Assembly (NCBI GenBank): GCA_963716175.1
Contig: OY970296.1
Span: 3,168,001-3,232,000, forward strand
Direction of reading: 5' to 3'
DNA: 64,000 nt
Source of the DNA: an uncultured Armatimonadetes bacterium
GTDB taxonomy: Bacteria > Armatimonadota > Hebobacteria > Hebobacterales > Hebobacteraceae
Shown here: positions 10,291-34,291 of the stretch, in pieces
Numbering within the stretch: the stretch's first letter is position 1
Layout: every line of letters starts with the position of its first letter
The notes under the pieces: model-generated
What the model was told of the DNA's origin: nothing
Database searches by the model: none
What the model saw: only the letters and a program-made list of their open reading frames with translations
Program-made: the position numbers and the translations under genes

Positions 10291-11457
10291 ATGCCAGGTC
10301 GCCACGCTCGTCGCATTCGTCTCACGGCCCTTGGCTTTCTGCTCTTCGGCCTTGTCGTCACAGGCGTCTCCGTCGCGGCTCGCCGTGCCAGCTCCACTGA
10401 CCCGGCGGCGCTCCGCAAGCAGCTCAACTCCATCTACCGGAAGCAGGAGCGCACCCTCAAGAACCTGCGCACCGTGAAGGCGCGCCAGCAGCGGGTGAAG
10501 CGCGAGCTGCGCCAGGCCGAGGCCGCCCTGGACGAGACTGATAGCCGTCTGGGCGAGGTGCGCCAGGATGTCCACGTTGCCCGCCGCAACCTGGCCCAGG
10601 CGCAGCGCGAATACCGCGCCGCCGAGGCCCGGCTGGACGGCCACCGGGAGGACGTTTCCGACCGCTTGGTTGCCATCTACGAGCTGGGTGAGGTGCGCCC
10701 CCTCGAGGTGCTGCTTCAGGCCACCAGCTTCACCGATTTCGCCAACCGGCTCTATCTGCTGAACCTGCTGGTGGAGCGCGACGCCGAGCTGCTCGATGCC
10801 TTCGAGCAGGCGCAGACGACCGCCGACCAGCATCGCGCCAATGTGGCGACCGAGGAGCGAAGGCTCAACGAGCTGCAGGGGCAGGTGGAAGCCAAGAAGC
10901 ATCGCGTGTCCGACTGGCGCGATGCCACGGCCGACAAGCAGGCCAGCCTCCAGGCCGCGCGGGCCGAGTACGAGCGCCAGCTCGCCGAGTTGGAGGAGAA
11001 TTCCCGCGAAGTCACCGCCATGTTGGAGCGGCTGGAGCAGACCAGGGCGGGCCGGGCCCGTTTTGCTCAGCCCTGGAAAGGCGCCTTGATCCGACCGGTT
11101 CAGGGCCGGATCACCTCCGGTTTCGGATATCGCACCCATCCCATCTTCCGGGTGCGGAGGATGCACACCGGGGTTGACATCGCCGCTGCCTCCGGCACGC
11201 CCATTCACGCCGCGGCCGGCGGCACGGTGGTGTTCGCAGGGCGGTGGGGCGGCTACGGCAACTGCGTAATCATAGATCACGGCGGCGGCCTGGCCACTCT
11301 CTATGGGCACTGCTCGAGCCTGGCTGTGGGAGAGGGCAACTCGGTCAAGCAGGGACAGACCATCGCCTATGTGGGCAGCACGGGCCTCGCCACCGGCCCC
11401 CATCTGCACTTCGAGACCCGCCGCAACGGCCGGCCGGTGGACCCGTCGGGCTTCTGA
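10291..11457 (+). CDS. M23 peptidase with coiled coil (EnvC-like)
   Basis: Signal/TM segment, long coiled coil, HTGVDI, YGNCVIIDHG, TGPHLHFE. Confidence 0.92.
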   Translation: MPGRHARRIRLTALGFLLFGLVVTGVSVAARRASSTDPAALRKQLNSIYRKQERTLKNLRTVKARQQRVKRELRQAEAALDETDSRLGEVRQDVHVARRNLAQAQREYRAAEARLDGHREDVSDRLVAIYELGEVRPLEVLLQATSFTDFANRLYLLNLLVERDAELLDAFEQAQTTADQHRANVATEERRLNELQGQVEAKKHRVSDWRDATADKQASLQAARAEYERQLAELEENSREVTAMLERLEQTRAGRARFAQPWKGALIRPVQGRITSGFGYRTHPIFRVRRMHTGVDIAAASGTPIHAAAGGTVVFAGRWGGYGNCVIIDHGGGLATLYGHCSSLAVGEGNSVKQGQTIAYVGSTGLATGPHLHFETRRNGRPVDPSGF

Positions 11458-22490: not shown

Positions 22491-22614
22491 AGCCTGACAA
22501 AGACTGGTCCGGGCAGAGCATGAACGTGGACCGCGCGTGGTGGTTCGGTTCGCTTGATGTCTGGTGGCTCAGGCCTTAGACGAGGCGCGCTAGCTAGCGC
22601 GCCTCGTCTGCTTT
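22491..22614 (+). ncRNA. Candidate structured sRNA or attenuator leader
   Basis: Begins just after the promoter; long irregular hairpin (GCCTGA 22492-22497 / TCAGGC 22569-22574) followed by a perfect palindrome. Confidence 0.4.
22578..22614 (+). terminator. Strong hairpin, likely terminator
   Basis: Perfect 32-bp palindrome AGACGAGGCGCGCTAGCTAGCGCGCCTCGTCT then GCTTT. Confidence 0.55.
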
Positions 22615-22814
22615 GGCCGCTTGTCTGCGGTCGGGCCGGGAGAGGAGGTGAGAGAAGGGGATTGGCGCGCAGTATCAGGCCAGGCGTTGTCTGTTGGGCA
22701 GGAGCCCCTAGGCTGCCTGAGGCGGCCGGGGTGGCGGCCGGCGAAACAGGCTTAGCCACTTGCCTCCTGCCGTGGGCGGATCGCTGTTCCAGGCGTGAGG
22801 AGGGAAGGGGAGGT

Positions 22815-23862
22815 ATGATCAAACAGAGGAAGGGCTTCACCCTGATCGAGTTGTTGGTAGTGATCGCGATCATCGCGATCTTGGCGGCGATGCTGTTCCC
22901 CGTGTTCGCACGCGCGCGAGTCGGCGCGCAAGATTCAGTGCCTGTCCAATGTGAAGAACATCGCCATGGCCATCCAGATGTACCTGGCGGACTTCGACCA
23001 GTTCTTCCCGCTCGAGCACGACAGGGCCGCTGCGGACTTCTTCAACGCCTTTGGCGCCAGCCAGGGTCGCTACGACGAGGCCTGGCCGAGCGTGTGCAAC
23101 CATGCTCGCCAGGCGAATCCCTACCTGCGGGAGCCGGTCGTCCTGGATGAGTACACCAGGAACCGTCAGGTGTGGCAGTGCCCGAGTGCGAAGCTGGAGT
23201 ACGGCCCAGGTTACATCTGCCCTATGGGCCGTGGGGGCTGGTGGGTCAACAATTACATTGACCACCCGAACTTCTATGATGACTGGATGGCTCCGCCCTG
23301 CACGATCGCCTACCCCACAGGTTGGGGCGGCAGCGTCACCGACTCCTTCGTGCAAGGAATGTGTCAAGACGCCGAGGCGGGCGGGTTAACCGCCACCGCG
23401 AAGGAGAGTATGTTCGCCGAATCCATCGGGATCAACGACAACATGCACTGGTCGAAGCCCGCTACTGTGAGCGATGCCGCCCACTATATCACGTGCGGCG
23501 AGTGTGGCTCGGGCGGTCTGTGGGGATCGCACTTCCTGGCCTACCCGGATCTGTGTTATGGATCGTCTCCCTGCGGCCTGCCGGACTGTCCTGAGGCCTG
23601 CACCGCAGATTGGGTCAACTGCGCGTGGACCCAGGCCTGCGGGCTGGACACTGAGCATAAGTGGATGTTCTATAGCGACGCGAACTTTCGCAAACAGTAC
23701 ACCCGGCATCTGGGCGGATCCAACGTTGGCTTCCTGGATGGGCACGCGAGGTGGTATCCCGCGGAGACGATCATCTTCCAGAATGGGCCATACGACTGCA
23801 CAGTCTTCGAGGGCCTGGCAACCGGGTGCTGCTGGTATCCGTTGCCGCCGCAGTGCCAGTAG
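22815..23862 (+). CDS. Prepilin-type N-terminal cleavage/methylation + H-X9-DG protein (DUF1559-like); 2-bp frameshift at (CG)4 22911-22918
   Basis: [29 protein letters not shown]; C-terminal RHLGGSNVGFLDGHA; GGAGG RBS. Confidence 0.9.
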
Positions 23863-24811: not shown

Positions 24812-25102
24812 TTCACCTCTCCGACGGCACTACCAGGCTGTACCAGAACCCAGCCGAGTGCGGTGTCTCGTCGCCCGGCAACGTTGATGCAGCCCGACTG
24901 AGAGCTTCACCAGGCTCCACCAGAGCAGTAGGATAGTACAGGAAATCCGTATGTTTGTACAGCCTGAAATGAGGTCCGGGGTGGTAACATGGGCGAGCGG
25001 CATCGAGATGGAGCGTGCCTGACCGAAAGGAGGTGATGGGAGCAGCGCTGCCTTGCAGTGCAGTCTCAAGCAGACGGGCGATGTCTGCGAGGAGGTAGTG
25101 CC

Positions 25103-26155
25103 GTGAGCAAGCGACGGAAGGGCTTCACCCTGATCGAGTTGTTGGTGGTGATCGCGATCATTGCGATCCTGGCGGCAATGCTGTTCCCCGTGTTCGCGCG
25201 GGCGCGGGAATCGGCCCGCAAGATCCAGTGCATGTCCAATGTCAAGAACATCGCCATCGCGGTGCAGATGTACCTCACCGACTATGACAAGTTCCCTGGC
25301 GGTGAGCACGCCGCAGACGCCGAAGCCTACTTCGTGAATGCCCCTGGCGGCGGGCAGGACGCCCCCAGGGAGGACTGCAACCACAAGACTCATGCCAACC
25401 CCTACCTGCGGTGGCCGGTGGTTTTCGACGAGTACGTGAAGAACCGGGATGTCTGGCGCTGTCCCAGCGCCAAGCTGGTGAAGGGCGTTACGGTTGTCAT
25501 CACCGCCCAGCCGGGCTGGCTCCAGTACTGGCAGAACCACGAGGGCCTATGGGGCCGCAGCTCTGACTGCAATGGCGGCGGCCCTTGCGGGGTAGCCTGG
25601 CCCACCGGCTGGGGCGGGAGCATCACCGACTCTATCGTGCAGGGAAGATGCGCCACCGCCGATACCGGTACTTTCGAGCAGAGCATCGGGACCGCTACCG
25701 GTCTGGCGGACATGAAGACCTCTCAGATAGACGATCCCTCCTGGACCGTGATCTGTGGTGATGCCGGCGGCCAGGTGGAGATCTCCAGCCCCACCATGCT
25801 CGCCTTCCCGGATGTCTGCGCGCTGAATGGCTGCGGCACTTGCTGCTACAGCCAGCCGGCCGAGATCGGCTGCTGCGCGGGAGACTGGGCCAACTGCCCC
25901 CTCTCTCCGGAGCAATCCTGCCTGGACTACAACCTGAAGCTCAAGTTCTGGACCGATCCCAATCTCCGCAAGCCGTTCGCTCGCCACCTGGGCGGCGTCA
26001 ACGCCGGCTTCGCCGACGGCCACGCCAGTTGGATGGCGTCTGACGCGATCATTGCCAACGCGCCCAGCTCGAACGACTCCAGCGCTGGCAAGATTCGCGG
26101 CATCGGGTGCGCCTGTCTTCCTCCGCCGCCCGGACAGCTGGGCCCGAACCAGTAG
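25103..26155 (+). CDS. Prepilin-type N-terminal cleavage/methylation + H-X9-DG protein (DUF1559-like)
   Basis: [34 protein letters not shown]; [15 protein letters not shown]; AGGAGG RBS. Confidence 0.93.
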
Positions 26156-28132: not shown

Positions 28133-29649
28133 CTGCCTCGCCTTCTGCCCGAGACCGGCCGCATCGCCGCCGGCCTGGTGTCAGACTATGAGGTGGTGCT
28201 GGTCAATGACGGCAGCACGGACGGCAGTGGCGCTCTCATAGACCGGCTGGCCGCCGAGTTCCCCCACGTGCGCGCCTGCCACCACACTCGCAATCGCGGC
28301 CTGGGAGCGGCCGTCGTCACCGGCCTCTGCCAGAGCAGCAAAGAGCTAGTTCTCTACATGGACTCCGATTTCCCTGTCAGCGCCGAGGAGGCGCGGGAGG
28401 CCATTCGCCGGTTCACCCCGGACTGCGATCTCCTCATCGGCTACCGGGTGGGGCGGGCTGAAGGCCCCCGCCGGGAGCTGATGTCCTGGACCTACAATCG
28501 CCTCATCCGCTGGACCTTCGGCCTGCGGGTGCGCGATGTCAACTTCGCCTTCAAGCTCATCCGCCGCTCCCTGCTCCAGCAGATGCGGCTGCGCTCCGAG
28601 GGTTCGTTCATTGACGCCGAGTTGCTGCTGGAGGCCAGTCGCCTGGGGGGCCGCATCCAGGAAGTTGGGCTTCGCTATCACCCCCGGGTGGCGGGCGTTT
28701 CCACCGCGGCCAGCAGCCGCGTGGTGGTGCGCATTCTGGGCGAGGCGTTGCGCTACTGGGGCCGCCAGCGGGCCGGGGCCCTGGGTCCTGCTGGCGTGAT
28801 CATCAACGCCGACGACTTCGGCCTCTGCGCCGCCGTCAACCAGGGTGTGGTGCAGGCCTTCGACCATGGGGTAGTGACCAGCGTCAGCATCCTGCCTACA
28901 GGCGAGGCCTTCGCGCAGGCCGCCGAACTGGCGCGCTCTCGGCCAAGCCTCGACCTGGGGGTGCACCTCGCCCTCACCCAGACCAGGCCCCTCTCCCCGC
29001 CGGAGGCCGTGCCTTCTCTGGTCAACAGCCGGGGTGAGTTCGCGCCGAGCTGGCCTGCTTTTGTCGCTCGCTACCTAAGGGGAGGAGTCCGCAGGGACGA
29101 GATCGAGGCCGAGCTGCGCGCGCGCAGATCGAGCGCAGCTATCAGGCCGGGCTGAGTGTCTCCCACCTGGATAGCCATCAGCACCTGCACGTGCTCCCTG
29201 GCATCCTGCCGTTGGTGACCAAGCTGGCGGCCGAGTACGGCATCGGCGCCCTGCGCTATCCCTGCCAGAGGCGGAGATGGGCGGCCATCGGCGGGCCGGG
29301 CCGCCTTCGCCGGCAAGTGGAAGGGAGAGCGTTGGCCGCGGTCTGCCGCCTGGGGGCGACTCGCCTGAGATCGAACGGTCTGCTACTCACCGACGATTTC
29401 CGGGGCTTCGGCGAGGCTGGGGCCTGGGACCGGGAGAGCCTCTCGCGCGCCGTCGCCAGCCTCGACGCGGGTCTCACCGAGATCTGCTGCCACCCGGGCG
29501 CCGATGACCGCATCGCCCATCGCTTCCCCTGGGGCTACCGCTGGGAGCAGGAGCTGGCCGCTCTTACCAGCCTGGAGGTAGCCACCGCGGTGGCCGCCAG
29601 CGGAGTGACGCTCACCAGCTTTCGCGACCTGCTGGCCAGAGGACGCTGA
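28088..29649 (+). CDS. GT2 (polyprenol-phosphate sugar synthase-like) fused to YdjC/ChbG/HpnK deacetylase; 2-bp frameshift at 29116-29125
   Basis: PIYNE, VNDGSTD, YMDSD; then IINADDFG, GVHLAL, HLDSHQHLH, EICCHPG. Confidence 0.87.
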
Positions 29650-29725
29650 CCCCCGCTGCTCGCCCCCTCGCCCCGGAGTCCCAGGGGCCTTGTCACAGGC
29701 CAGGCAGGCGCCTCAGCTACCTCAG

Positions 29726-30688
29726 CTACCTCAGCTCAGTGTCTGCGCCCATCTCGAGATTCACCTTCGCCTGAGCGCCGGCGGGGGTGGGGGCTACCAT
29801 CTCCATCGAGACCGCGACCAGCTCCTTCACCCTACGCCCGGCCTGATAGTCGAACCACGTCGTCACCTGGGTGCGGCCCGACTCTCGCAAGGCGGGGGAT
29901 TCCGCCTGCTCCGGCCCCATCGGCATGCTCAACTTCCAGGGCGCCACGGCCTCGATCTTCGCGCACTCGACTCCGTTGATGGTCTCAAAGCCGACCAGCG
30001 TGGAGGTGGTCTGCACCGGGAACTTCAGGTGGGCCAGCTGCTCCTTCGCCTCCGCCGGCATGGGCGCGCCCAGCATCTCCGCGATCGCCGCCGGATCTAC
30101 CATCATCTTCCACTCCCAGGATTCGCCCACCGACACTGACTTGTCCGGGTACAGCGGCTGGCCAAAGGCCTTGACCGCCTTGTCCAGCAGCTCCCCCAGG
30201 TTGATCTTCTGCCCGCCGGGGCCGGGTATGGGTGGCAGCAGCTTGTCCAGCCCCGTGATCGCCACCGGCTTGCCCCGCTTGCTTATCACCATCTCGATGG
30301 GAAGCGCGGGGAGCTTGATCAGTTGCGGCGGGCCCCCGCCGGGGCCCTGAATGGCCACCTGCACGTGCAAATCGGCCACGTCGAGCTTGACATCGAAGGA
30401 CTCGATCTGAGTCCCCATCGTCAGGTCCCCGTTCTCGGCCACACTTGTCACCCGCTCCAGGGTCATCGCCCTTCCCTCGAGCCGTGGGCTCACGACGAGG
30501 TTCGACTCCTGAGCCAGCGGCACGGCGATATCCATCGTCATGTTGAACTTGGACTCATAGCGGGAGGCGGTCCCCGGCGTACCCTTCAGCTCCAGTCTCA
30601 CCGATTCCGGCGCCGCCCATCCCGCCGCCACCACGGCTGCGAGCAGCACCCACATCAGCACTATCGCCAACCCTCGCCGCATCTGCAT
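29726..30688 (-). CDS. Secreted hypothetical protein
   Basis: Signal peptide, GAAGGAG RBS, beta-rich 320 aa with PDKSVSVGESWE motif. Confidence 0.7.
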   Translation of the reverse strand: MQMRRGLAIVLMWVLLAAVVAAGWAAPESVRLELKGTPGTASRYESKFNMTMDIAVPLAQESNLVVSPRLEGRAMTLERVTSVAENGDLTMGTQIESFDVKLDVADLHVQVAIQGPGGGPPQLIKLPALPIEMVISKRGKPVAITGLDKLLPPIPGPGGQKINLGELLDKAVKAFGQPLYPDKSVSVGESWEWKMMVDPAAIAEMLGAPMPAEAKEQLAHLKFPVQTTSTLVGFETINGVECAKIEAVAPWKLSMPMGPEQAESPALRESGRTQVTTWFDYQAGRRVKELVAVSMEMVAPTPAGAQAKVNLEMGADTELR

Positions 30689-30714
30689 TCTCCTTCCAGT
30701 AGTTGCCTTCGCCC

Positions 30715-31278
30715 TTATTCCGACACCGACGGAGCAAACCCCTTGGCGATCCCTCGCATCCGCTCTGCCGCCGCCGCCATCTGCGCGGCATCCAGCAACC
30801 GCTCGATCATAGGGAAGACCAGCCTGTTCTCCTTCTCGATATGTCGCGTCAGGAGGTCGAGGCTGGCGCTCACCACCGCCTGCAGCCCTTCCGTGGAGTA
30901 ACCGTTGGAGCTTCCAGCCCGCCCCATGGCCCCGAGCAAGCTCATCATCTCGCGCATGCGACTGCGGAGCAGATGGTGGGCGCTCAGGTCATCATCCGCC
31001 GCCTCCCCAAAGAACTGAGACAGGATGTCAACCGCGGGCGCGCCCTCCGCCACTATCCTTCGCACCTCCGGGTACAGCCCCTCCTCCTCCTTGCGGAAAT
31101 GCAGCAGCAGGCGCTGTCGCATGGCCTCCAGTCGGGCCCGTATCTCTTTCTCTGCTTGCGGCCGGGCCTGCTTGGCCGCGGTCGCGCCTGCGGCCACCGC
31201 CGCCGCCAGCTCGCGCATGCAGGCCAGCCCGGCCTCGTGCTCTTCCCGCAGTTCCCCCGTCGCTGACTTCTCACTCAT
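30715..31278 (-). CDS. Hemerythrin-like (HHE) domain protein
   Basis: LREEH, HFRKEEEGLYP, HIEKENRLVFP. Confidence 0.85.
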   Translation of the reverse strand: MSEKSATGELREEHEAGLACMRELAAAVAAGATAAKQARPQAEKEIRARLEAMRQRLLLHFRKEEEGLYPEVRRIVAEGAPAVDILSQFFGEAADDDLSAHHLLRSRMREMMSLLGAMGRAGSSNGYSTEGLQAVVSASLDLLTRHIEKENRLVFPMIERLLDAAQMAAAAERMRGIAKGFAPSVSE

Positions 31279-31384
31279 CGCGCCAGCTCCCCTTGGCAAC
31301 ACCACGCAGCTTGCGCCCCGCCACACGGCCGCCGGGCAAGTCTCCTTTCCTGGGACTCTCTGCTAGTCCTGCTGGCATCTGACG

Positions 31385-31458
31385 CTCCAGACGCGAGACC
31401 GCCCGGCATCTCTGCCGGGCGGCAAGCCTGGATTCACCTTGATCCAGCTGTTGGTGGT
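31385..31458 (-). ncRNA. Candidate sRNA antisense to prepilin motif (copy B)
   Basis: -10 TATCCT (31465-31470); seed ACCACCAACAGCTGGATCAAGGTGAATCC; 10-bp GC hairpin 31399-31422. Confidence 0.45.
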
Positions 31459-31591
31459 GAGAGTAGGATAGCCCGATTGTGTGTCGGGATCATTAACCCA
31501 ACCGCAAACTTCTGTGAGTTTTCCAGGCAGCATGGGGGTTCGGCCCCGCCGGTGGTCGCCGAAAGCACTGCCCCATGCCAGGCTGAGGGCG

Positions 31592-31662
31592 TCCCAAACG
31601 CGCAGCCGCCCGGCGTGTGCCGGGCGGCCACCGCACTTCACCCTGATCCAGCTGTTGCTGGT
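31592..31662 (-). ncRNA. Candidate sRNA antisense to prepilin motif (copy A)
   Basis: -10 TATGAT (31669-31674); seed ACCAGCAACAGCTGGATCAGGGTGAAG; 10-bp GC hairpin 31605-31628. Confidence 0.45.
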
Positions 31663-31835
31663 GCCATTATCATAGGCCACAGCCATGTCCGTACTGTGAA
31701 GGCAAGACCAACCTTCTGTGAGTTTTTGTGCCATTGAGGGCTAAGTACCATGTAGGATTTCGGTCACATGGCCGACATCCGTGACACAAATGGTAGTACG
31801 CAAACCTGTGGACCTGTGGTATATAGAGTCGGCGG

Positions 31836-31915
31836 TCACCACCAACAGCTCGATCAGACGTATCAACCGCCCGAACAGCTCTGCTAGGGGTCACCCATGC
31901 AGAGCTGTTCTGTTT
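31836..31915 (+). ncRNA. Candidate sRNA antisense to prepilin motif (copy C)
   Basis: Seed TCACCACCAACAGCTCGATCAG after TGGTATATAGAGT; 12-bp hairpin 31873-31910 followed by TGTTT. Confidence 0.4.
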
Positions 31916-31954
31916 GTGCCAGGTCAGCCGCGGAGGTCGCGAGCAGGCCCCAGG

Positions 31955-32308
31955 CTAGCTGCCCGGGTTTCTCGCGCTCTCCCGCGCCTCTCCTCCAGGC
32001 TTGTGTGGTCTCTGTTCCAGGCGGCGCTGCTGGCCGCGCCGTCGCGTTTGCTGCACCTGGTGCAGCCGGCCGTGGGCTCTTTGCCTGTCGGTCGGCGAGA
32101 CGCGCGCTGGCGCAGCGCGCTGCTCCCTCCCACCGGCCTGGTCACTCGGCGTTTCGCCCGGCGAGAGCATGCGGCCTCCGACCGTCCCCACCATGGCGTG
32201 GCCAGTCGCCAGGTAGTAGGTCACCCTGAAATCATAGATAAGCACTACCAGCACGGCCACCATCAGGATGATGGTGATCCCCAGCAGTGTCGGCACAGAC
32301 CGATCCAT
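31955..32308 (-). CDS. Small membrane-anchored hypothetical protein
   Basis: AGGAGG RBS; MDRSVPTLLGITIILMVAVLVVLIY TM helix; C-terminal frame uncertain. Confidence 0.55.
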   Translation of the reverse strand: MDRSVPTLLGITIILMVAVLVVLIYDFRVTYYLATGHAMVGTVGGRMLSPGETPSDQAGGREQRAAPARVSPTDRQRAHGRLHQVQQTRRRGQQRRLEQRPHKPGGEARESARNPGS

Positions 32309-32511
32309 GGTCCACCTCCTCTCCCGCTGATCCATCCCTGGCGCGGCCGCCCCGGCCGCCACACGGCGGGCGGGAAAGCCCGGCGCAAGCGAAGGCCCTC
32401 ATAGGAAGGTATCGGCAAGTGGACCGGCCGACTGTAGCGGCGCAGACAGCAGCAGAGGGGCAATGGGGACGCAGGCACACCCGCCGCCACTTCTCCGGCA
32501 GCTCCCCGGGG

Positions 32512-32670
32512 TCAGTTGCGCTGGTGCCGCACCACCAGGTGCCAGATCACGCCGACCACGAGCAGCAGCACCCCGAGCGGGACCGCGACATGCACCAGGA
32601 ACGCTACCAGTTGCAGCAGCGCTCCCACCACGATCAGCACCAGTCCCACCACGATCAAGGTGTGGGCCAT
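32512..32670 (-). CDS. 52-aa two-TM small membrane protein
   Basis: MAHTLIVVGLVLIVVGALLQLVAFLVHVAVPLGVLLLVVGVIWHLVVRHQRN; immediately follows the upstream gene stop; absent from ORF track. Confidence 0.7.
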   Translation of the reverse strand: MAHTLIVVGLVLIVVGALLQLVAFLVHVAVPLGVLLLVVGVIWHLVVRHQRN

Positions 32671-32673
32671 GGC

Positions 32674-33658
32674 TCACCCTCTGCCGGCAGTGGCGCGGGT
32701 GGAGGAAGGCCTTGCGGCTTCGGCCAGCCTTGCCTCCGGGAACAGCACGCACCAGGACAGGGGAATCACGATCGGGGCTAAAGGCAGGTAGACCCGCACC
32801 TCTTGCGCGATCGCCACCGCGTAGTGCAGGGCCACATAGGGCGGCACCAGCCAGAGCGAGCGCCGCAGCATCTCCCGGCCCTCGGCGCTGGCCCATGAAA
32901 GCCAGCACCCACAGCGCACCGAAAAGCAGGAAGACGTAGACCGTTGGCAGCACTGTGCTCAGGTTCCGCCACAGCATCACTACATCGCAGTAGTAGCCGC
33001 GCGGGCCGTAGATCATCAGCATTCCGCCATACACCAGCACCCAGGCCGCCCCCAACGCAACCGTGGTCCAGGCCAATCGCAGCGGCCGCTCTTTTCCCCA
33101 GCCGATGATGAGATAGAGGGCCGGGATCATCGCCACCGTCTCTCGGTTCAGCGTTCCCACCAATACCAGCGGGAGCAGCAGCAGGTCCCTCCGCCGCGCC
33201 AGCGCCCAGAAGGCGAGCACGAAGACCAGCAGATTGATGGGGTCGCTCTCCTGCACTACGCGCCAGTAGGTGAAGGGGATGATCGCCGCCAGAAAGAGGG
33301 CGCCGGCCGCGGCCGCGGCCGGCGAGAACCATATCCTCAGATAGCGGTCGAAGCAGAACAGGCCCAGGCCGGTGGCCGCCGCCCGCACTGCGAAGTAGGC
33401 GGCGTAGATGCTCTCGCCCGGCATCAGGTAGCGCACCATCTCGGCCAGCCAAGGGGTCAGCGGCCGGTACTGATTGGGGGCCGGTGCGGAGCCGGAGATC
33501 ATCTGGAGATGCCAGGAGGGGAGCTCCTGCAGATTCGCGATGCGGGCCCAGATCAGCGCGCTGGCCGCGCCCAAGCCCAGATAGAGCAGGAGAAGGCCGA
33601 TCGAACCTGGCAGAGCCGTTTCCTCCGAGCTGGCCGTGAGTTTCTCTCGCGGGGGCAC
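32674..33658 (-). CDS. Polytopic membrane protein (GT-C-like); frameshift near 32890
   Basis: APNQYRPLTP and GTLNRET motifs, TM helices; C-terminus in ORF 32674-32919. Confidence 0.65.
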
Positions 33659-33733
33659 AGTGGGATCTCAGTCCCGGCCCGGCGCGCTTGTCGGCCGGCC
33701 GCGCACCGCCGTCTCCGCGGTCGAGCACCCCAT

Positions 33734-34291
33734 CTAGCGCTCGCCCTTGTTCAGTTCCGCCAGAATGGCAGCCCTCAACTCGGCCTCATGATCCGGCCCC
33801 ACCTCCCCCTCATAGCGCACCTCATTGATATACAACGTCGGCGTGCCATTTACCCCGCTGCGAACCCCCAGCATCTTCTCCCTCTTTATCTTCTCCAGCA
33901 GGGCCGGGTCCTTCATATCCCGCTGAAAGCGGTCTTCCTCCAGGCCCAGCTCCCGAGCATAGCGGGAGAGCTCATCATCGCCGAGCGCTCCTCTGGCCTC
34001 GAACAGCCGCTGGTGCATCTCCCAGAACTTCCCCTGCCGTCCCGCCGCCTCCGCCGCCAGCGCCGCCTTCTCCGCCCGGGGATGGAGGCTGAATACCGGG
34101 AATGGGCGGACCACGAAGCGCACCCGGGGCTCCAGCGCCTTCAGCACCCGCTCGATCACCGGGTGGGCGGCCTGGCAGAAGGGGCACTGGTAGTCCATGT
34201 ACTCGACCAGCGTCACCGCGCCCAGGGGGCCTCGCGCCCAATCCTCGTCCGAGACCGGCCGCTTCAGCCGGGGAGGCTGTTCCGAGGTCAT
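33734..34291 (-). CDS. DsbA-like thioredoxin-fold protein
   Basis: EYMDYQCPFC, FWEMH, GVNGTPT. Confidence 0.92.
   Translation of the reverse strand: MTSEQPPRLKRPVSDEDWARGPLGAVTLVEYMDYQCPFCQAAHPVIERVLKALEPRVRFVVRPFPVFSLHPRAEKAALAAEAAGRQGKFWEMHQRLFEARGALGDDELSRYARELGLEEDRFQRDMKDPALLEKIKREKMLGVRSGVNGTPTLYINEVRYEGEVGPDHEAELRAAILAELNKGER

Follow-up and report, generated by a model that had tools for sequence, protein, structure and literature searches.

Three short units antisense to the prepilin methylation motif in an Armatimonadota genome, probably a family-restricted set of trans-acting small RNAs

The stretch of DNA analyzed here (the window) comprises 64,000 nucleotides (nt) from an uncultured Armatimonadetes bacterium of the family Hebobacteraceae (GenBank assembly GCA_963716175.1, contig OY970296.1, positions 3,168,001 to 3,232,000), and holds, between a hemerythrin-domain gene and an open reading frame (ORF) for a small membrane protein, three short units that are referred to as A, B, and C. 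These units are very probably functional conserved non-coding elements. Judging from their anatomy, conservation, structural covariation, and complementarity to a coding motif, they can be read as three small non-coding RNA genes of approximately 70-90 nt and of two types, in which both kinds of seed would be antisense to the codons for (F-T-)L-I-E-L-L-V-V, i.e., the N-terminal methylation motif of about 45 intact DUF1559 prepilin-like paralogs; as such, they probably form a new, family-restricted set of trans-acting antisense small RNAs (sRNAs). As to the full mechanism, in which these sRNAs would regulate a paralog family via its shared coding motif, the comparative evidence tips the balance modestly in its favor. 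The genome holding the window (G000) consists of a single contig (C1) of 4,560,930 base pairs (bp), with 66% G+C and an estimated completeness of 90.85%; the other genomes of the family are numbered G001-G014.

Unit C had been described in a first-pass annotation of the window as a divergent third copy of units A and B, but it is instead a distinct and better conserved type (type 2), with the following parts (coordinates are those of the window; R1 is the covariance model of type 2):

31808-31927, plus strand: unit C, candidate type-2 sRNA gene (104.5 bits with R1; sole full-length type-2 match in the genome)
31817-31825, plus strand: -10-like element TGGTATATA with TG upstream (TGGTAT almost invariant in 12 copies)
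31831-31836, plus strand: 5' arm GGCGGT of helix P1 (pairs with 31866-31871 in the minimum-free-energy fold)
31836-31857, plus strand: seed, antisense to the codons L-I-E-L-L-V-V(-I) (equals the consensus of 45 intact paralogs)
31866-31871, plus strand: 3' arm ACCGCC of helix P1 (fold and covariation)
31873-31918, plus strand: terminator-like 12-bp hairpin and T-rich tail (convergent to the ORF at 31955-32362, minus strand)

In the terminator-like hairpin, 31873-31884 pairs with 31899-31910, and TGTTTGTG follows. Homologues of unit C, read in the antisense-to-motif orientation, run from TGGTATA over GGCGGTC (about 9 nt further on), the seed ACCACCAACAGCTCGATCAG, and ACCGCC to the hairpin ACAGCTCTG...CAGAGCTGT and a T-rich tail. 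Within unit C itself, the 5' arm of the terminator (AACAGCTCTG, within 31873-31910) repeats the seed core AACAGCTC (31843-31851), and the 3' arm (GAGCTGTT) has the sense sequence of the target, so that the seed could alternatively pair with this arm; this repetition may be a relic of an inverted duplication or may provide a seed-masking fold.

Units A and B belong to type 1 (covariance model R2) and form a tandem repeat with a period of 204 bp:

31589-31734, minus strand: unit B, candidate type-1 sRNA gene with upstream boxes (R2, 77.8 bits for 31583-31674; aligned with 14 other copies)
31713-31726, minus strand: upstream box AAAACTCACAGAAG of unit B (genome-wide count and alignment)
31669-31674, minus strand: TATGAT, -10-like hexamer of unit B (read from the sequence)
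31637-31664, minus strand: seed of unit B, antisense to F-T-L-I-(E>Q)-L-L-(V>L)-V (mean of 5.6 mismatches per 28 nt to 45 paralogs)
31606-31627, minus strand: GC hairpin of unit B (pattern count and covariation)
31385-31530, minus strand: unit A, candidate type-1 sRNA gene with upstream boxes (R2, 73.3 bits for 31376-31470)
31509-31522, minus strand: upstream box AAAACTCACAGAAG of unit A (genome-wide count)
31465-31470, minus strand: TATCCT, -10-like hexamer of unit A (read from the sequence)
31433-31460, minus strand: seed of unit A (mean of 4.4 mismatches per 28 nt to 45 paralogs)
31399-31422, minus strand: GC hairpin of unit A (pattern count, covariation, and fold)

In both units, the box is separated by 38 nt from TATCCT or TATGAT, and 6 nt further on the seed begins. 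The units, boxes, hexamers, seeds, and hairpins were thus located where the first-pass annotation had placed them, with the same period, spacers, and gaps. The two spacers do diverge, as had been noted, but they are not wholly unrelated: the sub-boxes GTTCACA and GACACA within them are kept at fixed spacing in other genomes. With one mismatch allowed, the 14-nt box AAAACTCACAGAAG occurs at only two sites in the 4,560,930 bp searched (31509-31522 and 31713-31726), and the hairpin pattern CCGCCCGGC-N(2-10)-GCCGGGCGG is likewise confined to two sites in the genome (31399-31422 and 31606-31627). The consensus order of type 1 is the box TCACAGAAGTTTG, GTTCACA..GACACA, TAnnnT, the seed ..ACAGCTsGATsAGGGTGAA, the hairpin CCGCCCGG/CCGGGCGG, and a T-containing tail.

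Type-1 copies are also present at other loci, namely in G000 (2875693-2875794), G011 (319673 and 3748145), G001 (2175057), and on several contigs of G005; weaker but complete units were found as well, including a syntenic one in G006. The copy elsewhere in G000 (C1:2875693-2875794, minus strand; 42.9 bits with R2), which is the fourth unit of this genome after A, B, and C, shows the complete type-1 layout, with the box CACGGAAGTTT, GGACACAC, TATAGC, a seed from which 3 nt are missing, and the hairpin GACCGCCTGG/CCGGGCGGTC. When read in antisense orientation, a short fragment at C1 ~10850-10960 (minus strand) looks like a third subtype (GAGCGATCA and then the seed); it is without the usual hairpin, and its upstream TTCATGCAAATG..CAAT stretch also occurs in a unit of G001 (L087). 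The type-1 units of subtype b, L023, L048, and L089 in G005 and L046 in G011 lie inside a repeat of 245-313 nt that is approximately 86% identical between three G005 contigs and one G011 site, and the functional unit of this subtype may be longer than the sRNA model.

The conservation of the locus was assessed by a homology search with the 3 kb from 30700 to 33700 against 30 relatives. The adjacent membrane-protein gene was matched in all 14 other family genomes, with a DNA identity of 67-73%, whereas the region of unit C reached 74-90% over 42-102 nt in 10 genomes. Stretches resembling unit B were matched in G011 (twice), G005, G010, and G004. Intergenic matches in other genera comprised the units only, the remaining flanking intergenic DNA being not alignable. 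With R1, one full-length type-2 copy above 80 bits was found at the same locus in 12 of the 15 family genomes, unit C being the only one in G000, and this syntenic one-copy conservation spans 9 genera; the search returned no type-2 copy in G005 (93% complete), G006 (84%), or G009 (74%, at a contig end). Above 45 bits, R1 had no match in the 16 other genomes of the class or in 144 genomes of other families sampled from the phylum. With R2, 9 genomes, all of them family members, gave 19 copies above 55 bits (15 of these copies are the training set and 4 are new), with between 1 and 6 strong copies per genome, and type 2 is kept without a strong type 1 in G012, G008, G013, and G014. The covariance-model searches thereby recovered in related genomes the promoter-like, seed, and hairpin layout that the first-pass annotation had anticipated. 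Decay, which it had named as the alternative, was not borne out: at these positions related genera have the same short units with the same layout and no intact prepilin genes. Of the weak matches outside the family (below 45 bits), the two inspected, in G025 and G087, are antisense strands of intact prepilin genes, including a 39.5-bit R1 match among the genomes of other families of the phylum.

Both types contain helices with compensatory changes. In the alignment of type 2, the 18 pairs made up of the 7-pair stem that closes the seed loop and the 11-pair terminator are paired in 92.5% of cells, and 4 pairs are changed on both sides; the covariation score was reached by none of 500 shuffles, and partners slid by 1-3 columns pair in 34-51%. 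Considered separately, helix 1 (P1) has 87.7% pairing and one pair for which 2 copies carry changes on both sides, and helix 2 (the terminator) is 95.5% paired, with 3 pairs changed on both sides; RNAalifold alone recovered the terminator and not the short stem. The type-1 hairpin (10 pairs, 15 copies) is 92.7% paired, with 4 pairs changed on both sides, none of 500 shuffles reaching its score and slid controls pairing in 28-49%, and G006 adds a compensatory variant (CCGTCCG/CGGACGG). Single-sequence folds were more stable than those of shuffles (z-scores of -4.7 for unit C, at -37.4 kcal/mol, and of -3.1 and -4.0). The covariation is real but modest, since the stems are also conserved in sequence. 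The seed lies in a loop in type 2 and at the 5' end in A and B, where it is partly paired in single-sequence folds.

No protein product was apparent on either strand. Read in the sense direction, the units have LIELLVV(TA) alone in common; the residues preceding it differ, a common start is lacking, the frames run into stops after 10-81 codons, the essential Glu is changed to Gln in A and B, and the Gly before Phe is lost in B. In the antisense direction, the frame of the ORF at 31363-31734 (minus strand), which the first-pass annotation had named as the one possible competing explanation by a conserved protein, is broken by stops in 9 of the 15 type-1 copies, and a Pfam scan of the ORFs overlapping the units returned no family. 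Two further classes of element were tried and rejected: a mobile repeat of the type of miniature inverted-repeat transposable elements, given 1-6 strong copies per genome and no terminal inverted repeats around the units, and a cis-encoded antisense RNA, given that the sense strand of each unit is a fragment of 7-10 codons and no gene.

The paralog family to which the seeds are complementary is large. Six-frame translation of the genome gave 58 matches to the N-terminal methylation motif, most of them in ORFs of approximately 320-350 codons, and 45 intact DUF1559/N-methyl paralogs carry the strict motif. One of them lies in the window and serves as an example:

25058-26155, plus strand: predicted target, intact DUF1559 and N-methyl prepilin-like gene (PF07596 (SBP_bac_10) and PF07963; motif at 25121-25151)

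The 22 nt of the type-2 seed are identical to the consensus of the 45 paralogs, with a mean of 1.98 mismatches and 34 of the 45 paralogs at two or fewer; its centrality ranks first of 46, four paralogs being identical to it and equally central. With the example target, copy C pairs at 21 of 22 positions plus one G:U, exactly as first described, whereas the match of copy B to 25121-25151 had been overestimated: it amounts to 25 of 31 rather than 27 of 31 (6 positions differ), or to 26 if one G:U is counted. For duplexes predicted with 77 motif sites, the median energies are -40 to -45 kcal/mol, compared with -18 to -22 kcal/mol for random 60-mers. Genome-wide, prepilin sites account for 29, 18, and 29 of the top 30 predicted targets of A, B, and C, respectively; this ranking used a BLAST prefilter that misses some sites, and its outcome is partly by construction. 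The expectation that predicted targets would be dominated by prepilin 5' coding regions held. In 41 of the 45 paralogs an ATG stands 15-30 nt before the Phe codon, and pairing would therefore span approximately +22/+28 to +49.

Several members of the family are broken. A second gene that had been listed as a prepilin gene of the window does carry the motif (22833-22863), but it is not intact, being split over the overlapping ORFs 22554-23150 and 22951-23862 with a stop 105 codons past the motif's first Gly codon; a frameshifted pseudogene and an assembly error are the two readings of it. Further motif sites with an early stop lie, for example, at genome positions 112973, 758116, and 4059176, and in total stops after 13-105 codons were seen at 7 or more motif sites.

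Sequence variation in the seeds was compared with that of the paralogs. In all 12 genomes with the type-2 unit, the base opposite the Ile wobble position matches the majority codon. It is G where ATC leads (ATC/ATT counts of 40/9 in G000, 14/2 in G003, 2/1 in G004, 5/0 in G007, 27/12 in G011, 4/0 in G008, and 3/0 in G012) and A where ATT leads (5/11 in G001, 9/11 in G002, 4/14 in G010, 5/19 in G013, and 13/20 in G014). Such co-variation of seed and target is suggestive only. In type 1, departures of the seed from the target consensus (ACCAGC, CTGGATC) recur in units A and B of G000, in G011, and in G005, which argues for a constraint on the type-1 seeds themselves rather than for copying from paralogs, as gene conversion from paralogs would erase these departures.

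The orientation of the putative transcripts is suggested by the flanks of the seeds and hairpins. In the 21 nt before the seed, TAnnnT is present in 19 of 27 units, compared with 3.6% of random windows, and the A+T content is 53%, compared with 34% genome-wide. After the hairpin, T makes up 4.1 of 10 positions in type 2 and 4.7 of 12 in type 1, while A before the hairpin makes up 2.5 of 10 and 3.1 of 12. Both features would support transcription in the antisense-to-motif orientation. Contigs from three nanopore metatranscriptome runs of the same study gave no match to 31000-32500, a result that is neutral as to whether the units are transcribed. The tRNA (transfer RNA) genes of this genome provide a local promoter consensus of TTGACA, a spacer, and TGnTAnnnT, and 22 of the 58 genes have the extended -10 element in the 100 nt upstream of them, compared with 1.8% of random windows; the type-2 element has TGGTA in common with this consensus. 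In the single-contig genome (completeness 90.85%), an Hfq domain was not found, and RNase III is encoded at C1:1755994-1756368, a combination that fits long-duplex antisense action.

Transcription, its strand and 5' ends, pairing in the cell, and the sign of regulation are proposed to be as follows. Transcription of type 2 would start just past TGGTATA, the GGCGGT/ACCGCC stem would close a loop of approximately 29 nt that presents the 22-nt seed, and the 12-bp hairpin with its T-rich tail would end the RNA. Type 1 would start a few bases past TAnnnT, carry a seed of 26-28 nt at its 5' end, and end with the GC hairpin. Many paralog messenger RNAs (mRNAs) would then be bound in trans within their early coding region, in duplexes of 12-22 bp that form without Hfq, and the whole family would be lowered together; 'silencing', the word used in the first-pass annotation, is an inference. 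Cleavage triggered by the duplex (RNase III), or interference just past the initiating ribosome, would be likelier than occlusion of the ribosome-binding site. The units themselves probably arose from 5' fragments of paralogs. A further-reaching version, in which such target-derived sRNAs are Hfq-independent master regulators of a family of 45-50 members and seed variants (consensus type 2, mismatched type-1 subtypes) give graded or subset-specific control, is put forward tentatively and falls somewhat short of an even case.

A number of observations weigh against the proposed sRNAs or parts of their action. As to transcription, a strict consensus scan of 31200-32100 returned no sigma-70 promoter and no intrinsic terminator. 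The last base of the tRNA promoters is T in 16 of 18 cases, while all 12 copies of the type-2 element show A or G there; type-1 units are without TG, with a TTCACA box 20 nt from the hexamer. The T-tails are weak and often begin several bases past the stem, and the type-2 hairpin may be partly conserved as the terminator of the convergent membrane-protein ORF. The conserved A/T-rich, -10-like elements on which the first-pass annotation built its promoter reading are present, but with the empty strict scan and the misfit to the tRNA consensus this reading is weaker than had been thought, and because the elements depart from the local consensus, transcript starts are inferred; another sigma factor, or an activator acting at the conserved upstream boxes, may be involved. 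A promoter of the ECF or MerR type might tentatively be considered, in view of a GGAAC-like box and the 20-nt spacer. As to pairing, the seeds of A and B differ from the paralogs at 4.4 and 5.6 of 28 nt on average and both have, against every paralog, a mismatch in the center, where GAG is read as CAG; the predicted start of pairing at approximately +22/+28 is outside the stretch in which initiation is classically blocked by sRNAs. As to the tracking of target codons, the type-2 seed base opposite the second Leu codon agrees with the most frequent codon in just 6 of 11 scorable genomes (G014 is not scorable); in G013, for example, the seed pairs with TTG, yet 5 TTG stand against 18 CTG. In a tree of the neighboring protein (13 rows; G008 and G012, which lack the gene, were left out), the genomes with A at the Ile position fall into two supported clades, an arrangement compatible with either a single switch or two, so that the tracking of the Ile codon stands for no more than one or two events; gene conversion would give rise to the same pattern.

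Other explanations of the units were weighed against the proposed antisense regulation. That they are functional RNAs with another role, e.g., protein-binding RNAs, sense-direction decoys for a factor or an RNA that recognizes the prepilin 5' region, or longer transcripts that start at the upstream boxes, is unlikely while retaining some weight. The misfit of the promoter elements to the local consensus, the position of the type-1 upstream boxes at fixed spacing up to approximately 60 nt before the seed, and the central mismatch conserved in one type-1 subtype, which speaks against simple maximal pairing, are all in keeping with such a role. So is the arrangement of the units: on one strand the sense copies A/B and the antisense copy C are 95% complementary over 21 nt. 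Pairing of A/B with C is, however, not required, because type 2 is retained in G012, G008, G013, and G014, where a strong type 1 is missing. The region upstream of the type-1 seed, in which covarying dyads around ACACA had been suspected, does not fold stably (z-scores of -3.0 to +1.3, most near 0, with no common structure); moreover, T-enrichment past the hairpins occurs in the antisense orientation only, and an A/T-rich hexamer directly precedes the seed.

It is quite unlikely that the units act as DNA, either as operator sites of a regulator that also binds the paralog motif or as sites of recombination or gene conversion akin to pilin-type switches. The motif is present in about 50 places, the upstream boxes resemble protein-binding sites, A and C are inverted, and many paralogs are broken, which makes recombination among paralogs plausible. 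Compensatory changes in two different hairpins nevertheless point to a structure of single-stranded nucleic acid, the repeats do not enclose a full gene segment, and genomes in which type 1 is missing do not keep the inverted arrangement. An invertible switch of the Piv or Hin type was rejected specifically, as type 2 is without a strong type-1 partner in the four genomes named above and no recombinase domain was found in the 5 flanking ORFs scanned.

Very unlikely are cis-acting parts, with type 1 as leader or attenuator of the hemerythrin gene, the type-2 hairpin as terminator of the convergent ORF, and the prepilin-like stretch as incidental. The recurrence of the gene order in relatives would be accounted for, as would the hairpin of A, which ends approximately 75 nt before the ORF start at 31326, but this reading gives no reason for the strongest conservation to fall on a 20-28-nt stretch antisense to a paralog motif, and type-1 copies also occur at the other loci of G000, G011, G001, and G005 given above. 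Least probable of all, and already disfavored, is that the units are non-functional remnants of prepilin 5' ends kept similar by gene conversion or recent origin: several truncated paralogs in the genome, seeds that would be gene fragments by origin, and an Ile-codon tracking that conversion would explain speak for it, but against it stand the one-copy synteny over 9 genera amid unalignable intergenic DNA, the conserved non-genic parts (TGGTATA, the 3' arm of P1, the covarying hairpins), the subtype-specific departures from the family consensus kept in three genomes, and a homology to the family that stops at the motif, which, together with the same short units at the locus in relatives, also led to the rejection of a pseudogene remnant.

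The proposed antisense sRNAs can be compared with several known systems. RybB and MicA, the envelope-stress sRNAs of enterobacteria, are trans-encoded RNAs with a 5' seed and a hairpin terminator, in which one seed lowers many mRNAs for exported proteins of one class. The units would share with them the short trans-encoded RNA, the conserved seed at or near the 5' end, and the hairpin terminator; they differ in that RybB and MicA pair over 7-16 nt near the ribosome-binding sites of unrelated genes and need Hfq, whereas the seed of the units covers 20-28 nt and is antisense to a coding motif of paralogs, and there is no sequence or Rfam relationship. MicC pairs with ompD well inside the coding region and acts through nuclease cleavage rather than ribosome occlusion, which is similar to the pairing predicted here beyond the initiation window, although it has a single target, a short duplex, and a need for Hfq and RNase E, as opposed to long predicted duplexes with approximately 45 targets. 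In plants, miR482/2118, which are 22-nt RNAs of the eukaryotic Argonaute pathway, are aimed at the P-loop-coding motif of NLR genes; the likeness lies in the use of the most conserved coding motif of a large paralog family, mismatches mainly at wobble positions, and a probable origin from target genes, and is one of logic only, with no homology. Lastly, the antisense and G-quadruplex (G4)-associated RNAs of Neisseria pilE and the Piv inversion in the conserved N-terminal coding region of Moraxella pilin likewise concern the conserved 5' region of pilin genes, with control that is non-coding or exerted at the DNA level, but these switches act in cis at one expression locus, whereas the units stand away from any intact paralog.

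DUF1559/N-methyl proteins make up paralog families that rank among the largest in Armatimonadetes and Planctomycetes, and very little is known of their role and control. In the literature searched, no sRNA against prepilin or DUF1559 genes was found, and DUF1559 is rarely named there. For Rhodopirellula baltica, one report gives 74 DUF1559 genes, with 9 up in cold and salt shock and 16 down in heat shock (PMC2754498). If the proposed mechanism is true, a family-wide RNA acting via the shared motif would be a simple means of joint DUF1559 regulation. Bacterial sRNA biology would thereby also reach a phylum that has been little studied, is mostly uncultured, and seemingly lacks Hfq, and there would be a clear case of sRNA genes that evolved from pieces of their own targets, comparable, in bacteria, to plant miR482 directed against NLR genes. 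Given its strength, the comparative signal warrants a heterologous reporter test, for which culture of the organism is unnecessary.

The genes that flank the three units are as follows:

30715-31326, minus strand: hemerythrin-domain gene (PF01814; downstream of and co-directional with units A and B; syntenic in relatives)
31955-32362, minus strand: small membrane-protein ORF (convergent with unit C; no Pfam family)

In relatives, the order is also hemerythrin gene, type 1, type 2, small ORF, and a PMT_2-like gene. The small ORF encodes one hydrophobic segment, has DNA matches in G003, G007, G009, G013, and G014, and is always convergent with a type-2 unit. A search of 29000-34000 against Rfam release 15, with E-values up to 1, returned nothing at the gathering threshold and two sub-threshold matches, i.e., CRISPR-DR9 with 20.9 bits on the hairpin of unit A and, elsewhere, the DnaX frameshift element with 24 bits against a gathering threshold of 35. 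The latter (33271-33327, plus strand) lies inside the PMT_2-like membrane-protein gene on the opposite strand and is probably a chance match.

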